The position numbers were made by a program, and so were the translations under genes. From Bacteroidales bacterium (lineage in GTDB: Bacteria; Bacteroidota; Bacteroidia; Bacteroidales; Muribaculaceae), in assembly GCA_014800685.1 (NCBI GenBank), contig JAAVFQ010000015.1, forward strand, positions 15,767 to 79,766: a stretch of 64,000 nucleotides of DNA. The letters run 5' to 3'. Below the pieces are notes generated by a model. The model was not told where the DNA came from. It ran no database searches and worked only from the letters and a program-made list of their open reading frames with translations. Every line of letters begins with the position of its first letter. Within the stretch, counting starts at the first letter, position 1. This document shows positions 54,245 through 64,000 of this stretch, in pieces.

Positions 54245-55066
54245 CTAATCGCCACTCTCTTCGGCTAGTTTTCTATACTCCGCGCTCTTTGTTGAGTTCT
54301 TTATCTGGCCACACTTGCCATTCTCAAGAATATCTGCCATAAGGAGACAGCAGCTGGAATTACCGGCATCAGCATGTTCTTTCAGATAATTGTATGCTTT
54401 TATGCTTCCTGCTTCGGCGGCCTTCAGCAAATAGTCAAGCCCTTTTTCTTCATTTTTTTCTGTCACGACACCTTCGAAACAATAGCGCCCCACAGTGAAG
54501 AGAGAGTATCTATGACCCTGCTGAGCTGCCATCTCGGAATATTTATAAGATTTTTCAGGATCTGCAGCCAACCCATATTCCTTCATGCCATTTTCGTAGA
54601 AAAATCCAAGATTTGCTTGAGCTGTGACACACCCTTTTTCAGCCGATTTTGTCAGATAATCAAGTCCTTTAGTGACATTTCTTGCGATTCCTCCCTCTGC
54701 ATCGAGATAAATTATGCCGAGACTGCACATTGCATCCACATTATTCATCCCCTCTGCAATCTGATAATAACCGATGGCGCGAGCCACATCGATCTTCTCC
54801 CAATACTCTCCCTTGCGATAAATATCGCCGAGCAGTAAGGCTGCCGATGAGTTATATGTAGCTATTTTATCCAGGCATTTAATCGCCTTCTTAGTATCGG
54901 AACTTAAAATGGGTAACAGCTTCTCGACATACTCGTAGGAAGACAATCGGGCTGTCTCGTCCGACATGGGTATTTCACCCAATACGTTTGAGCGGACGCC
55001 TATGGCTCCGACCAGGCTGAGTTGCAATAGGATAATTGCACAAATCAATCGTCTGCCTATTACCAT
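54245..55066 (-). CDS. Secreted Sel1-like repeat protein
   Basis: Hydrophobic signal; repeats such as AMCSLGIIY..GIARNVTKGLDYLTKSAEKG and AQANLGFFYENG..AAQQG; 7-nt overlap with the upstream kinase. Confidence 0.9.
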   Translation of the reverse strand: MVIGRRLICAIILLQLSLVGAIGVRSNVLGEIPMSDETARLSSYEYVEKLLPILSSDTKKAIKCLDKIATYNSSAALLLGDIYRKGEYWEKIDVARAIGYYQIAEGMNNVDAMCSLGIIYLDAEGGIARNVTKGLDYLTKSAEKGCVTAQANLGFFYENGMKEYGLAADPEKSYKYSEMAAQQGHRYSLFTVGRYCFEGVVTEKNEEKGLDYLLKAAEAGSIKAYNYLKEHADAGNSSCCLLMADILENGKCGQIKNSTKSAEYRKLAEESGD

Positions 55067-56925
55067 GGTATCTCCTTTCCTGATTTTTCATACCATTTGC
55101 CACCCTCTTTGTAGCCCTCTCCATTCTTGAATTTACCCACATAGTAGGAGCCATCCTCCTTTATGGTATAGCGTCCGTTTTCATACTCGTTATTGAGCCA
55201 TGTACCCTCAAAGGTATCTCCGTTGGGAAGAGTGTAATGAGATTCTCCGGTCATGTTTCCATCTTTCCATTCACCATCATACACAGAGCCGTTAGGGAAT
55301 TTTGCCACGCCTTTTCCATTAGGGATATTTTCTGGATTAACCTCTCCGGTATACTTAACTTCACCAAGAACAGTCTTATAGTCCATATCCTCTACCGAGA
55401 CGGGCAGCGAGATTTCTGTCTGCTCCATGGCCTCTTTTTTCTCATCAGAAGAGTCTCCCCCCGAAATAAAGAATACTCCCGCACCGACAATTATCAGACC
55501 GATGACAAGCCCGATAATTATGGGCAAGTTACTCTTCTTTGCAGGTACCTCTATCTGAATATCCGGAATATTCTTCTCAACATCCTTTTGAGAAGAATAA
55601 TTCTCTTTGGGAGTCTGCATGACCTGTTCAGATTCAGATGGAGAGGTCAGCTTAACTTCTTTCCGAGCATTTTTATTCTCAGCCTTTCTTCCGGATTCCG
55701 CCTTTTTCTTTGAATCATTCTTCTCCTTTGGAGAGGGGATACCTTCCACAATATTATCGGAAATAGAGGATGCTTTTTCCGCAGCAGGCTGCACACTCTT
55801 TTTCACTGGAGAGGGGTGTGCATCATCCGGACCGATTTTCACCTCCGGACTCTCTTCTTCTTGCGGTATTTCAGTCTCTGCGACAGCTCCATTCTCTATA
55901 TCTGCATTCTCGCTATTCACCGGAGTAGATTCTTCCACACTTACCTCCGGATTTGATTCTGCCGGAATAGCCGATACAACTTCAACCACTTGAGCCTGCG
56001 GCTTTCCTTCTATTATAACTTCCTCGCTGTCATCGTTTTTTATAGCGAGAAGCATCTCTTGCATAGTCTGATAACGATTGCGTATCAGTGCAGACATAGC
56101 CTTGATAACGATTGCCTTCAGCCGGTCAGAGACTCCCGCTGCACTGAGTTTTTCCGCAGGATCCTCTATGCCATTAAGTATCAACGAGGCTTCAGGCGGA
56201 CGCAGGCCGGTAAGCATTTTAAACATTGTGGCTCCAAGCGCGTAAACATCCATTGTAACAGGGATGCCATTCCCCACACGATAATTCGATTGTTCCACAG
56301 GGGCATATCCCGGAGTTCCCGCTCCAATTTTAGTGCTTGCCTCAGGCTCTCCGCCCTCATCGAAATGCTTTGACAGTCCGAAGTCGATAAGCACAGGATT
56401 CATGTCTTCAGTCAGCATGACATTACTTGGCTTAATGTCAAGATGAAGCATTCCTTTACTATGAAGGGCACTCAATGCTGAAGCCAACTTGATGCTCAGG
56501 CTGATAACTTCATTTTCAGGCAGCCTTCCTCTCTTTTTAATATAATCGTCAAGGGAGCCCCCCTCTATGTATTGCATAGCATAATATACGGTGCCGTTAG
56601 CCTCAAAGACTTCCATCACATTTATGATGTTTTCGTGATTTACTTCTCCAAGATTGAGCGCTTCTCTGACAAATTTCTTCCGATAATCCTGCACCATTCC
56701 CATCTTATTCCCACTTGTGACCTGCGAGCCTTCACGCCCATTTATGTCACTCATGTAGAATTCCTTGAGGGCGACTTTGGAAGTAATGGCACCGAGTTCG
56801 CCCTGAAGAGTAATGGTAGCTTGATAGGTGATACCGAAAGAACCACGCCCAAGTACTTTTTTTATAGTGTAAGAATAGCGACTTCCCTGAAGAACAGTCC
56901 CGGGAGCCAATATGTCATTATTCAT
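55060..56925 (-). CDS. Hanks-type Ser/Thr kinase - acidic linker - TM - MORN repeats
   Basis: LGRGSFG, VALKE, HLDIKPSN, DFG, GTPGYAPVEQ, DVYALG; TM IIIGLVIGLIIVGAGVFFI; YDGEWKDG, FEGTWLNN and YVGKFKNG MORN repeats. Confidence 0.93.
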   Translation of the reverse strand: MNNDILAPGTVLQGSRYSYTIKKVLGRGSFGITYQATITLQGELGAITSKVALKEFYMSDINGREGSQVTSGNKMGMVQDYRKKFVREALNLGEVNHENIINVMEVFEANGTVYYAMQYIEGGSLDDYIKKRGRLPENEVISLSIKLASALSALHSKGMLHLDIKPSNVMLTEDMNPVLIDFGLSKHFDEGGEPEASTKIGAGTPGYAPVEQSNYRVGNGIPVTMDVYALGATMFKMLTGLRPPEASLILNGIEDPAEKLSAAGVSDRLKAIVIKAMSALIRNRYQTMQEMLLAIKNDDSEEVIIEGKPQAQVVEVVSAIPAESNPEVSVEESTPVNSENADIENGAVAETEIPQEEESPEVKIGPDDAHPSPVKKSVQPAAEKASSISDNIVEGIPSPKEKNDSKKKAESGRKAENKNARKEVKLTSPSESEQVMQTPKENYSSQKDVEKNIPDIQIEVPAKKSNLPIIIGLVIGLIIVGAGVFFISGGDSSDEKKEAMEQTEISLPVSVEDMDYKTVLGEVKYTGEVNPENIPNGKGVAKFPNGSVYDGEWKDGNMTGESHYTLPNGDTFEGTWLNNEYENGRYTIKEDGSYYVGKFKNGEGYKEGGKWYEKSGKEIPW

Positions 56926-56992
56926 TCTAAATATTACTTAATTTTACTTTTTTACTCTCCACTCATTCTGAGACTTGTGGAAACCTCATTAC

Positions 56993-57547
56993 TCATTTCC
57001 CGGACACGAATACTATTTCTTTAATTTGCTGGTCAGGGCCGGCGTATGTGCCACGGAATGAGCCGTCACTCATTTTATTAAGCTCAATCCTGTCTGAAGT
57101 GGCTCTGCCTCTTATGCTGATATGATTGCCGGAGGAGGTGCCTTTCATTTTTATAGAGGCTATACGCGTGTTCCATACGCCTTTCACATTCTCTCCCTCT
57201 ATCTCCAGATGAAGAGTGGTCTTGTGGCCGTTCTCCACAGATTCAACGAGCACAAGAGAAGAGGGAAGGGATGAGGGGATAACCTCAGCTGTGGTATTTA
57301 TTTCAGATTCAACTGCCTCGGATGCAGAAGAATTGCTATATCGCCAATACAGATATCCACATAGCGTAACCATTATTAATCCTGCCACGGCTAAAATTAT
57401 CACGATAGCCGTTGATTTCTTACGGCTTTTAACCACTTTCGGCTCAAGATCTAATGCTGACTGAAAATCTTCTTTGACCATTGAGTCAGACATCTCATCT
57501 TTTTGCGCAGGAAGATAATCTCTATCATTATCATTATTTATACTCAT
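56993..57547 (-). CDS. Single-pass membrane protein with small C-terminal beta domain, function unknown
   Basis: Acidic N-terminus, KSRKK then TM AIVIILAVAGLIMVTLCGYLYW, S/T-rich linker. Confidence 0.75.
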   Translation of the reverse strand: MSINNDNDRDYLPAQKDEMSDSMVKEDFQSALDLEPKVVKSRKKSTAIVIILAVAGLIMVTLCGYLYWRYSNSSASEAVESEINTTAEVIPSSLPSSLVLVESVENGHKTTLHLEIEGENVKGVWNTRIASIKMKGTSSGNHISIRGRATSDRIELNKMSDGSFRGTYAGPDQQIKEIVFVSGK

Positions 57548-57634
57548 ATCCTGTTATTTTGAAGCAAGTTTACTATCAAAGACATATAGAAGAATCCCAT
57601 CGGAATATTTCCAATCTGATTGAGACAGCTCCAA

Positions 57635-59002
57635 TCAGTCTGCTTCCAGAACTACACATTCCACCGGAGTACGGAAAAGTTCTCTTATCCAACCCGTATA
57701 GAAATCAGTGGCTATCATCACTCCTATGATAGCTATGATTAATCCAATCAGCAAGAAGGCCAAAGTGCGATTCTTTTTTGAAGTGTCCTTTCCTGTCACG
57801 TTATAACTCTGAGCAGGAAACGCTGGCATTTCTTCTACTCGCGTTCTTTCATCTGACTGATAACCTGCAGCAGGCATTATATCTAACGATGTATTCTCAA
57901 GATCAACTGTAGTTCTCTCATCTTGAAATCCTCCTGATGCTGAAACCACCTCAAGACTGGTGGCCTCGTCTTCCTGATAGTCTATGGCTGTAGCCTCCTC
58001 ATTTATCATTTCCGGAATCGGCTGAGAGGGCATCACAGTCTCTACCGGAATAACTTCTGCAGACTCTGCAACCGGTTCCGGCTTATCACTCTCTCCATCA
58101 AGAGCTATCTTTATTGCTTTCTCCAAATGTGCAGCTGACTGATATCTGTCTTTCCACAGAGGCTGCATAGCTTTAGTCACTATCTCTATCGTGGGCCTAC
58201 TGACTCCCGCAGCTGCCAATTCATCTTCAGAAAAACCATAATTAAATATTTCCGGCGCGGAAGGGGGCACTTTGCCGGTCAGCATATTATATAGTGTAGC
58301 GCCAAGGGCGTAAATATCCATTGTCTTGGGCACCCCGAATCCGGCATGATAAGATGTCTGCTCCATAGGCACATATCCGGACTCTCCATTACCGAGACCC
58401 ACGATTGTGTCAGGCTCACCTTTTTCATCAAAATGCTTGGCTAATCCAAAATCAATGAGTACAGGCACCTTTCCGCTATTCATGAGAATATTATCGGGTC
58501 TGACGTCAAGATGAAGCAGTCCGTGAGAATGCAGTTCATCAAGCGCTCCGGCCAGCATTATTGTAATCTCCAGCGCCTCCTTTTCCGGGATGCGCCCTTT
58601 AGTCTTGATAATATCGGCCAAGCTCTCTCCACTAATATATGACATGGAATAGTAAGCAGTATCATTAGCTTCAAATCCCTCATATACGTTTATGAGATTG
58701 TTGTGTGAGATGGAGTGCAGATTCTGAGCCTCTCTTTTAAACTTGCGGTAAAGCTGGTCAAAGAGTTCTTTATTGCTGAAAACGGAGACAGTAGAGTCTT
58801 TTCGATCATTGCATTCAGCCACAAATAGCTCTTTGAGTGCGACCTGCATATTTGTTCTCTCACCGGCCTCGTTAATGATGTCGGCGAGATAAGTAATTCC
58901 GTATGATCCAAGTCCAAGAACCTTCAGTATGCGATATCTGAAATTTACACCCTTGAGAACGGAACCCTCCTTGAGGGCTTCTTTTATGTTGTTTTTTATC
59001 AT
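57635..59002 (-). CDS. Hanks-type protein kinase with C-terminal TM anchor (variant catalytic loop)
   Basis: LGLGSYG, VALKE, HLDVRPDN, DFG, GESGYVPMEQ, DIYALG; TM LAFLLIGLIIAIIGVMIA; short tail. Confidence 0.92.
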   Translation of the reverse strand: MIKNNIKEALKEGSVLKGVNFRYRILKVLGLGSYGITYLADIINEAGERTNMQVALKELFVAECNDRKDSTVSVFSNKELFDQLYRKFKREAQNLHSISHNNLINVYEGFEANDTAYYSMSYISGESLADIIKTKGRIPEKEALEITIMLAGALDELHSHGLLHLDVRPDNILMNSGKVPVLIDFGLAKHFDEKGEPDTIVGLGNGESGYVPMEQTSYHAGFGVPKTMDIYALGATLYNMLTGKVPPSAPEIFNYGFSEDELAAAGVSRPTIEIVTKAMQPLWKDRYQSAAHLEKAIKIALDGESDKPEPVAESAEVIPVETVMPSQPIPEMINEEATAIDYQEDEATSLEVVSASGGFQDERTTVDLENTSLDIMPAAGYQSDERTRVEEMPAFPAQSYNVTGKDTSKKNRTLAFLLIGLIIAIIGVMIATDFYTGWIRELFRTPVECVVLEAD

Positions 59003-59057
59003 TGCTATCTATGCTGCTCTTTATTTGACCATTAATTTATCTTCGAGCCTCCGAGAA

Positions 59058-60686
59058 TTATTCTCCTGTATTTTCCGAGTTTTCTGAAGCGGACTGCGGG
59101 GCTACCGGTTCTCGTGATTCCACGTTAGTCGGTGAGACTTCCTTTGCGGATGTTTTTAGCTCTTCGGAATTCTGATTCTTATGCGCATTTTCATCTTTAT
59201 GAGATTCCTCCAAATTCTCCTTTTTCTCTTCTCTGCGGACGCGTGAATCATTCTCCGGAGCTTTTGATTCTTCCGGAACTATAGTGGCAGCCGAAGGTGT
59301 CATGGAGGATGAATCCTGCGCTGAGGGGATTACGATTTCGGTAGTATCGCCCAACTCTTCCCGATTTTCTATCGTTTCCTCAGAGCGGGAAAGCAGGAAG
59401 AAATATAATATCAAACCACACGCTATAATAAGAATGGCAGCCATAACGTAAACGGCCACATGGAGATGTCTTTTTTTCTGACTATTACTGATTCTTTCCT
59501 CCTCAAGAACTTCACTTTCGAGAACATAATCATCTGCAGAGTTGTCCGAAGCAGTATCAAAGACTATCTTTTCCGGCTTATTTTCAGTGGGCGATAAGGA
59601 AGTATCAGCCTCGGTTGCCGGAGGCGTAATCACATTTTGAGGATCCGGAATACTCCTTTCTTCTGTCATATTTTCCGAAGTATTCTCTACTTTCTCCACT
59701 ATGGCAGAGCTTGAGACGACCGGAGGCTTAACACTTTCAGTTATAGGGATGACGTCTGATTTTTCCGTGACAGAAGAGCTATCATGTTGCTTTTCATCGA
59801 CTTCCACATCGACGGTATTATTCGCTTTTTGATGGGGAAGAGAATAAAGTTGCCTCATAATGGCATCCTGCATCTCCATTAAGGCATGAAATCTCTTCGT
59901 TACGGAAGGAGACATGGCTTTCTCTATAATAGAAATTGTCTCGCCACTGACTCCGGCTGCTTTCAGAGGCCCTGCCGGGAAACCGAAATTAAGAATTTTA
60001 GCAGCATCAGCAGGAGTTTCGCCGGTGAGCATCGCATACATTACGGCGCCGAGACCATATTCGTCTATTGCGACGCCACTCCCCATGCCTTTTCTGTAGT
60101 ATGCTCTCTCGATAGATGAATATCCGGGAGTCAGGAAAAGGGGAGAGGCGCTTCCATCTTCCTTAGTATCTCCGACAACGAATCCAAAGCCGGCTATAAC
60201 CGGTATGTTATCTTTGGTGAGGATGATATTATCGGGTGTAACGTCAAGCAGAGAAATACCTCTTGAATGAAGATAGTCAAGAGAACTGCAAAGAGCAGTT
60301 GCAATTCTCAGTGTATCTGATTCTGAAAATCGGCCTCTTTCTCTTATGCATTCAGCAAGAGTATTACCCTCGATATAGTCAGAAACGTAAAATATCACAC
60401 CGTTCTCCTCAAACGATTCCTTAATCGTCTGAATATTGGCGTTTCTCAGATTTAATAGAGCAAAGATCTGACGGACATAATCGTCATGAATATTAGAATC
60501 ACCCTCTCGGGTCAGGACAAACTCCTGGAGAGCCACGAATTCACCGGTGCTTTCATCGCTGATAGTAAGCACTTCTGCGAGATAAACATTAGTATGCGGC
60601 GACTTTCTCAATAAGCGGATTATCCTGTAATTTTTGCCGCGGCCCTTCACTATCATTCCGTCGGCGAGCCGAATATTGTTTGTCAT
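59058..60686 (-). CDS. Membrane-anchored pseudokinase (Hanks fold, catalytic motifs degenerate)
   Basis: No Gly loop (RKSPHT), VALQE, LLDVTPDN, AGFG; retains GYSSIE, DEYGLG, MLTGETP; TM near residue 410. Confidence 0.85.
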   Translation of the reverse strand: MTNNIRLADGMIVKGRGKNYRIIRLLRKSPHTNVYLAEVLTISDESTGEFVALQEFVLTREGDSNIHDDYVRQIFALLNLRNANIQTIKESFEENGVIFYVSDYIEGNTLAECIRERGRFSESDTLRIATALCSSLDYLHSRGISLLDVTPDNIILTKDNIPVIAGFGFVVGDTKEDGSASPLFLTPGYSSIERAYYRKGMGSGVAIDEYGLGAVMYAMLTGETPADAAKILNFGFPAGPLKAAGVSGETISIIEKAMSPSVTKRFHALMEMQDAIMRQLYSLPHQKANNTVDVEVDEKQHDSSSVTEKSDVIPITESVKPPVVSSSAIVEKVENTSENMTEERSIPDPQNVITPPATEADTSLSPTENKPEKIVFDTASDNSADDYVLESEVLEEERISNSQKKRHLHVAVYVMAAILIIACGLILYFFLLSRSEETIENREELGDTTEIVIPSAQDSSSMTPSAATIVPEESKAPENDSRVRREEKKENLEESHKDENAHKNQNSEELKTSAKEVSPTNVESREPVAPQSASENSENTGE

Positions 60687-60756
60687 TTATAATTGCATTC
60701 TAAAAAATTAAACGATATTATTCCGGACTAAACATCCTAAATAGCATCACAGTAAT

Positions 60757-62217
60757 TTATTCCGGTGTCTTATCATTTCCGGTGGATTTTCCGGAGTGCT
60801 CGGGCGCCGGAGCCTGCGATGTACTTTTTTGCGGTGCTCCGGCACGATTGGGTTGCGTTAGCACTCCCTCATCTTGAGGAGCCTTGATAGAGCCCGGAGT
60901 GTTTTTTGCAGGTACCTTCTGAGCCTTATCCTGTTTACTCTTTTTAGAAAGAGCTGCAGAAGACCTCTCAGAGGATTTTTCTTTACTCAATTCTTCAGGG
61001 ATGGGAGAAATACTTTCACCTCCTTCGTCTAAAACGGATACCTCTGACTCAGTAGTTTTAACAACATCTACCTCTTCCTCCTCATATACCCGCTTTCCGG
61101 TATCTTTCCCTCTGCCTTCTCCATTAATCTTTTCAATGAAAAGATAAGCGATTACCATCAGCAAGAGAGCAAGTATTGCGCTTAGAATATATATGAGAAC
61201 TTTGGATTTTCTCTTTTTTTTGACAGGCAGAGGAGGAGCCATATTTATCGAAGAGGAGTATGCAGGTTCGCTCTTCGACTTAATTGGATTTTCTGACGTC
61301 CTTCCCTTATGATTGACTTCAGAGACTACCTGTGAGGGGGCTGATCGGCGTGAAGCCAGCTTATCCTTGTCTATGAGAAGGGGACATTCCTTAGAATCGA
61401 CCTCTAAGGGCGTGGCCGGTCTTCCTTCTATAGCTACAACTTCTATGATGAAGGCTGTATGATTGTCTCTATTTTCAATCGTAGCCATTCGAAGAGCTTG
61501 CACCTTCTTGTCAATATCGTCTACGGCCGGGGAGTCTGAGAAGAAAAACTTCAGGTTTTCATCATCGGCCTCTTCAAGCATTCCATCTGTACAAAGATAG
61601 AAATAATCTCCCGGCATAATATTAGAAGAGTGGTGCACATCCGCCATTGAACGTCTCTCATCATTAGGCTGCATAGCTCTTGTGATAACGTTTTTCTGAG
61701 GAAACATCTTTGCTTCTTCCTCAGTAAGCTGACCGACTTTGATTAGGTCGTTTACCAGAGAATGGTCCTCGCTTTTAAAGATAATCTTTGTCTCGGCAGG
61801 AGTGTTTCCGGGGCGAAACTGATATATACGGCTATCTCCAAGGTGAGCAGCAGTATAGCCTGCATCATGAAATTTCAGGAACGTCATAGTGGTTCCCATT
61901 TTTTTTGTAGCACCGGAGTCTTTTGCATCGAGAGCCTTGTAAGCCTCGCTAATGGCATGCTGCAGGATTAAATCTGAGAAACTACCCTCAGGGGAGGATT
62001 CCGTCTCAACGACTTTGCCCATGGTCTCAACCACCGTTTCGCTGGCCACTTCTCCTTTATCATGTCCTCCCATGCCATCACACAGCACAAATACCCGACA
62101 GCTATCCGAGATTGCATCCATTGAGGGATACATGCTATCTTCCTGGTGCGGATGACCACTTTCATCGGTTCGTTTACCAAACTCTATGATGCCTCGAACT
62201 CTTAGTTTAAATTTCAT
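60757..62217 (-). CDS. PP2C/PPM Ser/Thr phosphatase with TM anchor and low-complexity C-tail
   Basis: QEDS, LCDGMGGH, HLGDSR, ITRA, LCTDG, DNHT; KKKRKSK before the TM. Confidence 0.93.
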   Translation of the reverse strand: MKFKLRVRGIIEFGKRTDESGHPHQEDSMYPSMDAISDSCRVFVLCDGMGGHDKGEVASETVVETMGKVVETESSPEGSFSDLILQHAISEAYKALDAKDSGATKKMGTTMTFLKFHDAGYTAAHLGDSRIYQFRPGNTPAETKIIFKSEDHSLVNDLIKVGQLTEEEAKMFPQKNVITRAMQPNDERRSMADVHHSSNIMPGDYFYLCTDGMLEEADDENLKFFFSDSPAVDDIDKKVQALRMATIENRDNHTAFIIEVVAIEGRPATPLEVDSKECPLLIDKDKLASRRSAPSQVVSEVNHKGRTSENPIKSKSEPAYSSSINMAPPLPVKKKRKSKVLIYILSAILALLLMVIAYLFIEKINGEGRGKDTGKRVYEEEEVDVVKTTESEVSVLDEGGESISPIPEELSKEKSSERSSAALSKKSKQDKAQKVPAKNTPGSIKAPQDEGVLTQPNRAGAPQKSTSQAPAPEHSGKSTGNDKTPE

Positions 62218-62260
62218 GACGTTTTTCTTAGATTGTCGCTTTATCCAATACCAGATTACT

Positions 62261-62890
62261 TCAATTTACAATAAGAATCAGAGAGGCATCCGGCAATGAA
62301 ATCTGCATGCCGGGAATGATAGGCATTCTGCATCCAAAATACAAACGATTCCCGTTAATATAAGTTTCGTTGCAATTAGGCTTACATAGTGATGCTGTGA
62401 ACTGAAGACCACCGTAGGCATCAGTATTAACATCAATCAGGAGATGCTCCCTGCTCATTTTAAGACTTCCTCCGGTATTAATCTTTACATTTGCGGATGA
62501 GCTGGCACTATATCTGCCTATAATATTGCTACCGATTAAAAGCGGGTAACGTTCCTGGGTTCCTTGATTAAGAAGCATGGCATAGTGTCCCTGCGAGGGT
62601 TGCCCGTAAGGGCGGGGGGGACGCTGGGCGGGAATTCCTTGTCTCGGAGGGACACCGGAGGAAGCCGGAGGTGCTGAAGAGTACCCCGGATAATTACCGT
62701 TGAAGTCGGGAGTTTTATGAGGAGGAGGAGTCTGCACTCTGCCGGGGACAGCCACATCCTTCATCTTAATAAAGGGGTAGGTGTTATGGCATACAGGACA
62801 AGTGACAGTGGTATTCTGAATACCGGCCTGATTTCTTATGGTCAGTATCGCCCCGCAGGTTGGACATTTTTTTTGTATAAATTCATTCAT
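62261..62890 (-). CDS. Zinc-ribbon - Pro-rich linker - FHA domain protein
   Basis: CPTC...CPVC; FHA motifs IGR, SREH, NETYING; likely start 62890. Confidence 0.88.
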   Translation of the reverse strand: MNEFIQKKCPTCGAILTIRNQAGIQNTTVTCPVCHNTYPFIKMKDVAVPGRVQTPPPHKTPDFNGNYPGYSSAPPASSGVPPRQGIPAQRPPRPYGQPSQGHYAMLLNQGTQERYPLLIGSNIIGRYSASSSANVKINTGGSLKMSREHLLIDVNTDAYGGLQFTASLCKPNCNETYINGNRLYFGCRMPIIPGMQISLPDASLILIVN

Positions 62891-62944
62891 AATTATAGTC
62901 TTTACAGGGATAGTCAAGTTATTAATATATCTCTCTTACATTTC

Positions 62945-62984
62945 TGCTCTTCAACAAGTCATTTTGGCTGAACTTTGAAGAGCA
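62945..62984. other. Intergenic stem-loop within the signalling cluster
   Basis: TGCTCTTCAA / TTGAAGAGCA 10-bp arms with inner pairing; no U-tract on the coding (minus) strand. Confidence 0.6.
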
Positions 62985-63026
62985 AATTAATTTATCAACT
63001 TGCTTATCCATTCTCTTTATTAATTA

Positions 63027-63503
63027 TTAGTAATAGACTCCTTTTTCCCCGTTAAGGATACTCTGTAAAGATTTCAGTCTGCTTTCTTTTTCTTTTTTGG
63101 AAAGAATCAATGCTACATATTCTGATCTCTTTTCTGAATATTCTCTTTCTAAGGACTTGTCCTTTCGCTCCGAGTTTGAGAGCCGTTTTTCAAGACTAAG
63201 CAAGTCTGATGATCGGATTTCAATTTTTATTTCAATAGTCTTCAAATGCTCGGATAGTAGGGCAGCTTCCTTTTCAATGCATTTCAAAGAGTCTGCCGAA
63301 AGGCCCTCTAATCCAATACTCTTTGGGGCTGTCTCATCTTTTCCGGCTCCCTTCATGATACCTGTTCGTTTCATGGACAGCATCCTCTCAGCTGCACGCT
63401 GCTTCTGCACTCTCTCCGGGGGCGCTTGACTTTCGGAAGCTCGAGAGCCAATAGAAATCACCAGGCATAACAATGTAGTTATTATTTTTTCTGACGTTTT
63501 CAT
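63027..63503 (-). CDS. Secreted coiled-coil protein, function unknown
   Basis: Signal-like N-terminus (KIITTLLCLVISIGSRA), heptad-rich charged C-terminal half. Confidence 0.7.
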   Translation of the reverse strand: MKTSEKIITTLLCLVISIGSRASESQAPPERVQKQRAAERMLSMKRTGIMKGAGKDETAPKSIGLEGLSADSLKCIEKEAALLSEHLKTIEIKIEIRSSDLLSLEKRLSNSERKDKSLEREYSEKRSEYVALILSKKEKESRLKSLQSILNGEKGVYY

Positions 63504-63526: not shown

Positions 63527-64000
63527 TTAATTCTCGCTCTCATCAAGCAAAATATTATCTTCTTTTACTTGGTCTGCATTCCCATTATATTTCTGATATT
63601 CCTTCAGGGCATTGCGATATTTTCTTAAGACATCTTTTTTCACATATACCTTGAGATTTGGACAATGAGTCTTGAGAGTCCACATCGGCTTGTCTGTATT
63701 CATGTTTTCATACAAGACGTTAGCTGAAAAAGGGCCCTCAAGTAAAACCTGTGTAACCGGCGAATTAAGCAACAAATCAGGCTTCAGAATTATTCCTGCA
63801 GGAGCTATCACTCTATCAATTTTACAATCTTTCTGCCACACTCCCTCGGCGATGTCTTCCAGTTTTTCCGACAACTTAAGATCGCCACATTTCGAACTTG
63901 GTATCAGAAGCAGGCGTTTACTATCGGCCGAATAAAGACAACCATCATAACACTCATATTTCTTTTCCTCATCGGAAGACTTCATGCTGATGTTTTGCAG
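63527..64000 (-). CDS. C-terminal part of a BspA-like leucine-rich-repeat (LRR_5) protein, start outside the window
   Basis: Frame open to the edge (LQNISMKS...); YECYDGCLYSADSKRLLLIP resembles the Y.S.DGVLYSKD...LI.YP spacer of LRR_5 proteins; LKVYVKKDVLRKY C-terminal cap. Confidence 0.6.
   Translation of the reverse strand: MQNISMKSSDEEKKYECYDGCLYSADSKRLLLIPSSKCGDLKLSEKLEDIAEGVWQKDCKIDRVIAPAGIILKPDLLLNSPVTQVLLEGPFSANVLYENMNTDKPMWTLKTHCPNLKVYVKKDVLRKYRNALKEYQKYNGNADQVKEDNILLDESEN

Follow-up and report, generated by a model that had tools for sequence, protein, structure and literature searches.

What becomes of a bacterial receptor-type protein kinase once the residues that hold ATP and metal are gone? 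The question is raised by a gene called PsK here, for pseudokinase, which lies in a stretch of 64,000 nucleotides from a Muribaculaceae genome (assembly GCA_014800685.1, contig JAAVFQ010000015.1, positions 15,767 to 79,766; this whole stretch is the window below), beside genes for two Ser/Thr kinases with intact motifs (K1 and K2), a PP2C-type phosphatase and an FHA-domain protein. PsK is a real, maintained pseudokinase, because selection still preserves a predicted kinase fold stripped of ATP- and metal-binding residues, and the most fitting description is of a pseudokinase of recent, species-level origin inside a canonical Bacteroidales receptor-kinase family. The gene and the parts of its product are as follows.

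59058..60686, minus strand: PsK gene, 542 amino acids (aa), intact open reading frame (ORF) with an ATG start.
59817..60686, minus strand: kinase-fold domain of PsK, aa 1-290 (from AlphaFold2, Foldseek and dN/dS).
60591..60608, minus strand: degenerate Gly-rich loop R27-K-S-P-H-T32, GxGxxG gone (alignments; identical in 10/10 alleles).
60525..60527, minus strand: Gln54 at the position of the β3 (VAIK) Lys, VALKE having become VALQ54E (alignments).
60468..60470, minus strand: Gln73 at the position of the αC Glu, VREA having become VRQ73I (alignments).
60228..60251, minus strand: catalytic loop L146-L-D-V-T-P-D-N153, compared with HLDxKPxN (alignments).
60183..60191, minus strand: G166-F-G, compared with DFG, the Mg-binding Asp gone (alignments).
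59862..60086, minus strand: αF-αI region, aa 201-275, including ILNFGFP..AAGVS..TISIIEKAMSP..KRF (regional identity).
59391..59465, minus strand: single transmembrane (TM) helix, aa 408-432 (hydropathy).

Every substitution listed in an earlier, sequence-only reading of this DNA (RKSPHT, VALQE, LLDVTPDN without its His and Lys, and GFG) is present when PsK is aligned with K1, K2 and eleven kinases of related operons. The same reading held that all catalytic landmarks are lost, which is correct for the Gly-loop, the β3 Lys, the catalytic-loop His (now Leu146) and Lys (now Thr150), and the DFG Asp, and incorrect for the catalytic-base Asp148 and for Asn153, both still present in the alignment. 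It did not include the loss of the αC Glu, the deletion of about 15 residues of the family-specific insert between β3 and αC, and the activation loop, which is 3 residues shorter than in orthologues. Pseudokinases are defined by sequence as lacking at least one of the VAIK Lys, the HRD Asp and the DFG Asp; PsK lacks the first and the last and has the Asp at the HRD position, and by this definition it qualifies as a pseudokinase. Two named copies at NCBI carry the label 'serine/threonine protein kinase', which goes beyond what the PsK sequence supports.

The remainder of the protein is in order, as the sequence-only reading had it for the 542-aa frame, the C-lobe motifs (APE-Glu193, αF Asp208 and Arg265 are present) and the TM helix. 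The sole Pfam domain is the kinase domain (Pkinase, PF00069), matched over residues 37-227 with an E-value of 1.3e-23 and 84.2 bits against a cut-off of 31.7. The layout comprises a cytoplasmic kinase-like domain, a disordered, Glu/Ser-rich linker of 115 residues before the TM helix, which is preceded by KKRH, and an acidic extracytoplasmic tail of 109 residues after the helix. PsK is predicted to keep the bilobal kinase fold: the AlphaFold2 model of residues 1-300 has a pLDDT of 87.7 and a pTM of 0.87, and its best Foldseek matches are Stk1 of Staphylococcus aureus (9ymt) and PknB of Mycobacterium tuberculosis (1mru, 6b2q), with E-values of about 1e-17 and TM-scores of 0.72-0.85. Among solved structures, those of StkP, Stk1 and PpkA are nearest to PsK in sequence.

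The exact PsK protein is present on two further assemblies, and its cluster at 90% identity has nine members, which together with the protein of the window itself make ten distinct sequences, carried on contigs from gut metagenomes. All ten alleles are 542 aa long and free of stops and frameshifts, and the degenerate residues are invariant among them. The degenerate state is neither an assembly artefact nor a chance event, because ten alleles from independent assemblies carry identical degenerate residues and the motifs are intact in the kinases of related arrays.

Selection was measured among alleles, synonymous sites being saturated against the nearest orthologue (32% identity). When the window is compared with the three haplotypes L001, L007 and L020, dN/dS over the kinase domain (codons 1-290) is 0.11-0.12, with synonymous to non-synonymous changes of 12:5, 11:4 and 15:6 (binomial P 3e-6 to 5e-5 against neutrality), and over the linker and tail it is 0.44-0.77. 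Across the ten alleles, variable columns number 11 out of 290 in the domain and 44 out of 252 in the tail (Fisher P 1e-7). For the first 290 codons of the neighbouring genes in the L020 comparison, dN/dS is 0.04 in K1, 0.05 in K2 and 0.17 in the PP2C gene. The PsK domain is kept by purifying selection and the gene is not decaying; the earlier claim of a maintained pseudokinase beside active kinases, a PP2C and an FHA protein agrees with these values, with the ten full-length alleles and with the intact motifs of K1 and K2.

Close relatives of PsK are rare. Its own cluster aside, nothing above about 41% identity was found by a word-indexed search of 5.8 billion proteins or by HMMER run exhaustively against 1.84 billion cluster representatives, and 185,579 GTDB species representatives, a set from which the host species is absent, gave no relative closer than 28-29%. 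A profile made of PsK and its positional orthologues returned essentially the candidates of the first search again and did not recover P0090, P0091, P0099 and P0100. Orthologous loci were reached through orthologues of the PP2C protein (55-60% identity; Prevotella and Prevotellaceae metagenome-assembled genomes), which led to five syntenic Prevotella-like operons, L012, L013, L016, L018 and L019. Their gene order is LRR_5, a small ORF, an ORF of 400-466 aa, a caspase-like Peptidase_C14, FHA, PP2C, four to six tandem kinases and Sel1, with glnS after Sel1 in L016. The kinases in the first slot after PP2C include P0099 and the following.

10421..12001 of L012: P0090.
5941..7422 of L013: P0091.
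5857..7293 of L016: a kinase about 98% identical to P0100.

These first-slot kinases are, as judged from sequence and synteny, positional orthologues of PsK, because they share the position after PP2C, the best per-domain scores, and a TM/juxtamembrane motif and tail. Scored against PsK per domain, P0090, P0091, P0099 and P0100 are best at 154-178 bits, and K1 and K2 reach 144-147. The common motif reads RHLHV..YVM..LYFFLL(S/G)(R/K)(S/T)E..IE..E, followed by an acidic tail; in PsK it is RHLHV...LYFFLLSRSEETIE, adjoining the TM helix, and the PsK tail alone finds P0100, P0091 and P0099 in BLAST with E-values of 6e-22 to 8e-15. The first-slot kinases thus resemble PsK in slot, motif, acidic tail and overall architecture; unlike PsK, they keep GxGxxG, the β3 Lys, HLDxKPxN, the β3-αC insert and, except for DYC in L016 and P0100, the DFG Asp. 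The counterpart of K1 in the related arrays is the third kinase (55-63% identity) and that of K2 the last, MORN-bearing kinase (55-80%), whereas PsK is only 31-38% identical to the first-slot kinases, compared with 55-80% for K1 and K2 and their own orthologues. In a neighbour-joining tree PsK stands beside P0100, but it also adjoins the long-branched degenerate domains of fused proteins, and a clean grouping with the other first-slot kinases appears in 1/100 bootstraps; given this long-branch disturbance, orthology was not drawn from the tree.

The orthologues of PsK are of the active type. In the L012 and L013 arrays all 11 kinases are intact at the Gly-loop, β3 Lys, αC Glu, HLDxKPxN and DFG, apart from an Arg at the Lys position of the catalytic loop in those of the K1 type, and no motif is altered in the first-slot kinases of L018 and L019. 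The closest relative is L016, with 94% identity in the GlnRS fragment. In its first-slot kinase the Gly-loop, the Lys and HLDLKPSN are unchanged, but DYC stands where DFG would be, and the activation segment is rewritten, 21-29% identical to those of the other orthologues. It may be a weakened or differently regulated kinase and hence represent an intermediate state. Of the two observations that the sequence-only reading had coupled against a maintained protein, intact motifs in the orthologues are seen (fully in 4/5, the closest one carrying DYC) and neutral decay is not.

Degenerate kinase domains also occur in P0086, P0092, P0082, P0081, P0095 and P0087, which are two-kinase-domain proteins of the same broad family with one degenerate domain fused to an intact one, some of them also with FGE-sulfatase-like or repeat domains. 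In the fused degenerate domains the αC Glu is changed to Gln or Lys, the catalytic-loop Lys to Ser or Asn, and DFG to GFG, GFD or DFA; substitutions of the PsK type recur there, apparently independently. A primary kinship of PsK with the degenerate N-terminal domains of P0086 and P0092, where the same Gln, Ser/Thr and GFG changes are seen, was considered and rejected, as per-domain scores favour the active first-slot kinases, and the shared substitutions look convergent.

The divergence of PsK is unevenly distributed along its kinase domain. In Tajima relative-rate tests the number of unique changes in PsK, as in the L016 orthologue, is about 3.5 times that in L013_k1 (P about 1e-7 to 1e-8), and the rates of PsK and the L016 orthologue are mutually similar. 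Of 68 columns that do not vary among six orthologues, 43 are the same in PsK and 25 are changed, including the whole Gly-loop, K54, H146, K150 and D166. By region, PsK is 28-33% identical to the active orthologues in the N-lobe (61-69% among the active orthologues themselves), 20-31% in the activation segment (63-66%), and 41-52% in αF-αI, residues 201-275 (45-49%). Constraint is gone from the nucleotide site and the activation segment and fully kept on the distal C-lobe, αF-αI being the best-conserved part of PsK and a candidate docking surface. The distal C-lobe of kinases is generally a region of protein-protein docking.

The genes encoded around PsK, which would include its partners, are the following.

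62261..62917, minus strand: zinc-ribbon and FHA-domain protein (phosphothreonine-binding motifs GR, SxxH and NG in the sequence; Pfam FHA match weak).
60757..62217, minus strand: PP2C-type Ser/Thr phosphatase with a C-terminal TM helix, immediately upstream of PsK (Pfam PP2C_2, 5.8e-11).
57635..59002, minus strand: K1, receptor-type Ser/Thr kinase, motifs intact, catalytic loop HLDVRPDN (Pfam, alignment).
56993..57547, minus strand: TM184, membrane protein of 184 aa with a TM helix and an extracytoplasmic domain, no kinase domain (homology to the C-terminal sensor part of receptor kinases).
55060..56925, minus strand: K2, receptor-type Ser/Thr kinase, motifs intact, extracytoplasmic MORN repeats (Pfam, alignment).
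54245..55066, minus strand: Sel1-repeat protein, last gene of the cluster, overlapping the end of K2 by 7 nt (Pfam; syntenic in L013, L016 and L018).

The genes of the cluster all run in one direction, 43-87 nt apart except for one overlap, and their order (FHA, PP2C, PsK, K1, TM184, K2, Sel1, then glnS and recR) is identical in every PsK allele. Orthologues of the FHA protein give clear Pfam FHA matches, and the PP2C protein also matches NCBIfam Stp1_PP2C at 5.7e-43, under the cut-off of that model. A sigma-70 promoter scan of the cluster gave promoter-like matches at the level of shuffled sequence, the sigma-70 consensus not covering Bacteroidales promoters, and the terminator-like matches on the minus strand all lie within coding sequence; a look for RNA runs turned up none. 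PADLOC kinase models (PD-T4-6, MADS Mad6, Mokosh MkoA) match PsK, K1 and K2 alike (E 1e-34 to 1e-54), none of the cluster partners matched any PADLOC model when partner genes of anti-phage kinase systems were looked for, and all NCBIfam matches are far below cut-offs; the matches of the three kinase-family proteins are read as generic kinase similarity.

TM184 aligns with the TM helix and the extracytoplasmic C-terminal part (about 160 aa) of the penultimate receptor kinase of related operons, a protein of 515-530 aa (27-31% identity, E 5e-11 to 2e-18). A 204-aa ORF in L016 (10685..11299) shares 48% identity with TM184, which is under strong purifying selection (dN/dS 0.05). Because of its homology to the C-terminal part of that receptor kinase, TM184 is taken as a sensor domain whose kinase domain was lost. 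In the K1 orthogroup (window 57635..59002, minus strand; L012 13500..14879; L013 8936..10318) Arg replaces the Lys two residues past the catalytic Asp (HLDVRP[DQ]N), an arrangement typical of Src-type tyrosine kinases, and all kinases of the L012 and L013 arrays are 'non-RD', with HLD rather than HRD.

Compared with L016, the window is 94% identical in GlnRS, 59% in PP2C, 58% in K1, 55% in K2, 48% in TM184, 44% in FHA, 33% in Sel1 and 32% in PsK; the signalling operon (54245..62917) evolves much faster than the flanking housekeeping gene for GlnRS. The ORF at the window edge (63527..63985, minus strand) encodes the C-terminal part of an LRR_5 protein of 349 aa, whose gene comes first in the cluster at all related loci. 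Between an ORF of about 160 aa and FHA, 4/4 relatives whose contigs reach that far have an ORF of 396-500 aa and a caspase-like Peptidase_C14, at a place that corresponds to about 62918..63030 of the window.

5980..8309 of L012: ORF and Peptidase_C14.
1743..3878 of L013: ORF and Peptidase_C14.
1742..3668 of L016: ORF and Peptidase_C14.
1316..3446 of L018: ORF and Peptidase_C14.

The lineage of the window has neither the 396-500-aa ORF nor Peptidase_C14, and it has three kinase-family genes, compared with four to six in the relatives.

What could a kinase of this kind do? The sequence-only reading had proposed a regulator or decoy of the neighbouring kinases. The role of PsK is something we infer, and on balance the probable one is that of a non-catalytic partner in the module of FHA protein, PP2C and kinases whose genes surround its own, a phospho-scaffold similar to that of MviN, PknB and FhaA. 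PsK would be descended from the first receptor kinase in a tandem Ser/Thr-kinase array, still anchored in the membrane but without catalytic activity. Because 4/5 of the elements that hold or orient ATP·Mg are replaced (the Gly-loop, the β3 Lys, the αC Glu and the DFG Asp), as are the catalytic-loop His and Lys, it is most likely capable of neither productive nucleotide binding nor phosphate transfer. It would dock K1, K2 or both at the membrane, K1 or K2 would phosphorylate it in trans on Thr or Ser residues of the activation segment or the linker, the phosphorylated form would recruit the FHA protein as a reader, and PP2C would reset its phosphorylation state.

The precedent is the MviN pseudokinase of M. 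tuberculosis, which is phosphorylated by PknB and then recruits FhaA (PMC12599244). MviN (family ActPs3) is likewise a membrane-associated bacterial kinase-fold domain that lacks the ATP-binding residues, and its partners are an active Hanks kinase and an FHA protein; next to the PsK gene lie genes for two active-type kinases, an FHA protein and a PP2C. In MviN, however, the domain is fused to a membrane protein of the lipid II flippase type, the protein is actinobacterial, the triad is fully degraded, and the activation loop has a large deletion, whereas PsK is a stand-alone, single-pass Bacteroidales protein that keeps the Asp at the HRD position, and the two have no close sequence relationship.

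Several observations weigh against the scaffold role. Asp148 and Asn153 are retained, leaving room for residual or atypical chemistry. Constraint on the PsK domain is somewhat weaker (0.11) than on K1 and K2 (0.04-0.05), a difference that is not significant at these counts. The operon looks reduced, with the caspase-like gene, the ORF and two or three kinases lost, so that PsK could itself be slowly heading to loss, and PsK is known from one species-level lineage only, which limits any inference of long-term retention.

Docking to K1 or K2 could also be put to another use. PsK may be an allosteric activator or inhibitor of these kinases that works by heterodimerisation of kinase domains, in the manner of HER3 or STRAD, and not an FHA phospho-scaffold; we consider this allosteric reading rather unlikely. 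Two intact paralogous kinases are encoded directly downstream, PsK, K1 and K2 are all single-pass membrane proteins, and the fusion of degenerate to intact kinase domains within the same broad family suggests that such pairs cooperate. However, PknB-type kinases dimerise back to back through the N-lobe, which in PsK has diverged more than any other part, and the fused degenerate domains are not its closest relatives by per-domain score. In a separate and bolder reading, to which we give distinctly less credence, PsK (a kinase fold without catalysis or sensor) and TM184 (a sensor without a kinase) would be receptor-kinase leftovers rewired as a non-catalytic co-receptor pair gating K1 and K2, that is, the birth of a HER3-like co-receptor with the DYC orthologue as an intermediate.

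It is slightly less probable again that PsK is still an enzyme, either an unconventional kinase with relocated residues (WNK-like, or CASK-like with its GFG) or a protein of other chemistry (SelO- or SidJ-like). In favour of such an enzyme, Asp148, Asn153 and the F-G of DFG are still in place and do not vary among the alleles, and R27 and K28 occupy the former Gly-loop. CASK has a GFG motif, is active without Mg, and keeps the β3 Lys, the αC Glu and the Gly-loop. PsK shares the GFG but has lost all three of these; WNK, too, keeps a glycine-rich loop and a functional lysine, the WNK-type lysine position is Thr32 in PsK, and no further constellation of conserved basic or acidic residues was found. 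That PsK is a gene in early neutral decay, a pseudogene-to-be without a stop codon so far, is hardly credible and largely excluded by the selection analysis: the active type of its orthologues, the branch about 3.5 times faster than L013_k1, the loss of other genes from the operon and the occurrence in a single species-level lineage would all fit decay, but kinase-domain dN/dS is 0.11 with neutrality rejected at P about 3e-6, ten alleles show no stops or frameshifts, the divergence is patterned (αF-αI conserved, ATP site lost) and not uniform, and the fold prediction is confident.

PsK can be placed among the bacterial pseudokinases described to date. The statement of the sequence-only reading that such proteins are rarely described in bacteria is dated: seven families (ActPs1-3, GLW, CP1, DYD and DLHK) are catalogued, and MviN, YukC/EssB, SidJ and SelO are also discussed (bSTK atlas; 2025 review). 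The described families are Hanks-type and lack the VAIK Lys, often also the DFG Asp, and several are anchored in the membrane by a C-terminal TM helix; they come from Actinobacteria, Proteobacteria, Cyanobacteria and Firmicutes, and a text search for "Bacteroid" found no mention of Bacteroidota for any pseudokinase family in the bSTK atlas or the 2025 review. PsK resembles them in the lost VAIK Lys, the Hanks-type domain and, for some, the C-terminal TM anchor.

Compared with their descriptions, PsK fits none of the seven. ActPs3 proteins are actinobacterial, with three degraded motifs and a deletion of about 40 residues in the activation loop, while PsK keeps Asp148 and has a loop 3 residues shorter. 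The GLW family has GLW for HRD and a poly-Leu stretch (LLLL/W) for the β3 Lys, where PsK has LLD and VALQE; the DYD family has Arg for the β3 Lys and DYD for DFG, where PsK has Gln54 and GFG. CP1 (fused to a COG3899 ATPase) and DLHK (fused to a helicase/DNA2) are cytosolic without a TM helix, and PsK has a kinase domain only and the TM helix at 408-432. The actinobacterial indels that define described families are absent from PsK, and its nearest relatives are active Prevotella-type kinases. The operon logic of a Hanks kinase with a PP2C, with or without an FHA reader, is shared with PpkA-PppA-Fha1, StkP/PhpP and Stk1/Stp1; these systems have a single active kinase and no pseudokinase, and the PsK cluster, unlike them, has no type VI secretion or cell-division context and no PASTA domains.

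The impact of the finding is limited, because the host is an uncultured gut Bacteroidales and the phenomenon is already known. Bacterial pseudokinases have been catalogued yet are almost without experimental tests. The families described so far are old and conserved; PsK, by contrast, branched off from a canonical family recently and at the level of a species. PsK is a compact natural experiment in which a receptor kinase is turning into a selected non-catalytic protein, because its orthologues are still of the active type, a sister species is partly altered (DYC), and the likely partners are co-encoded. It also pinpoints the part of the kinase domain that remains constrained once catalysis is lost, namely αF-αI.

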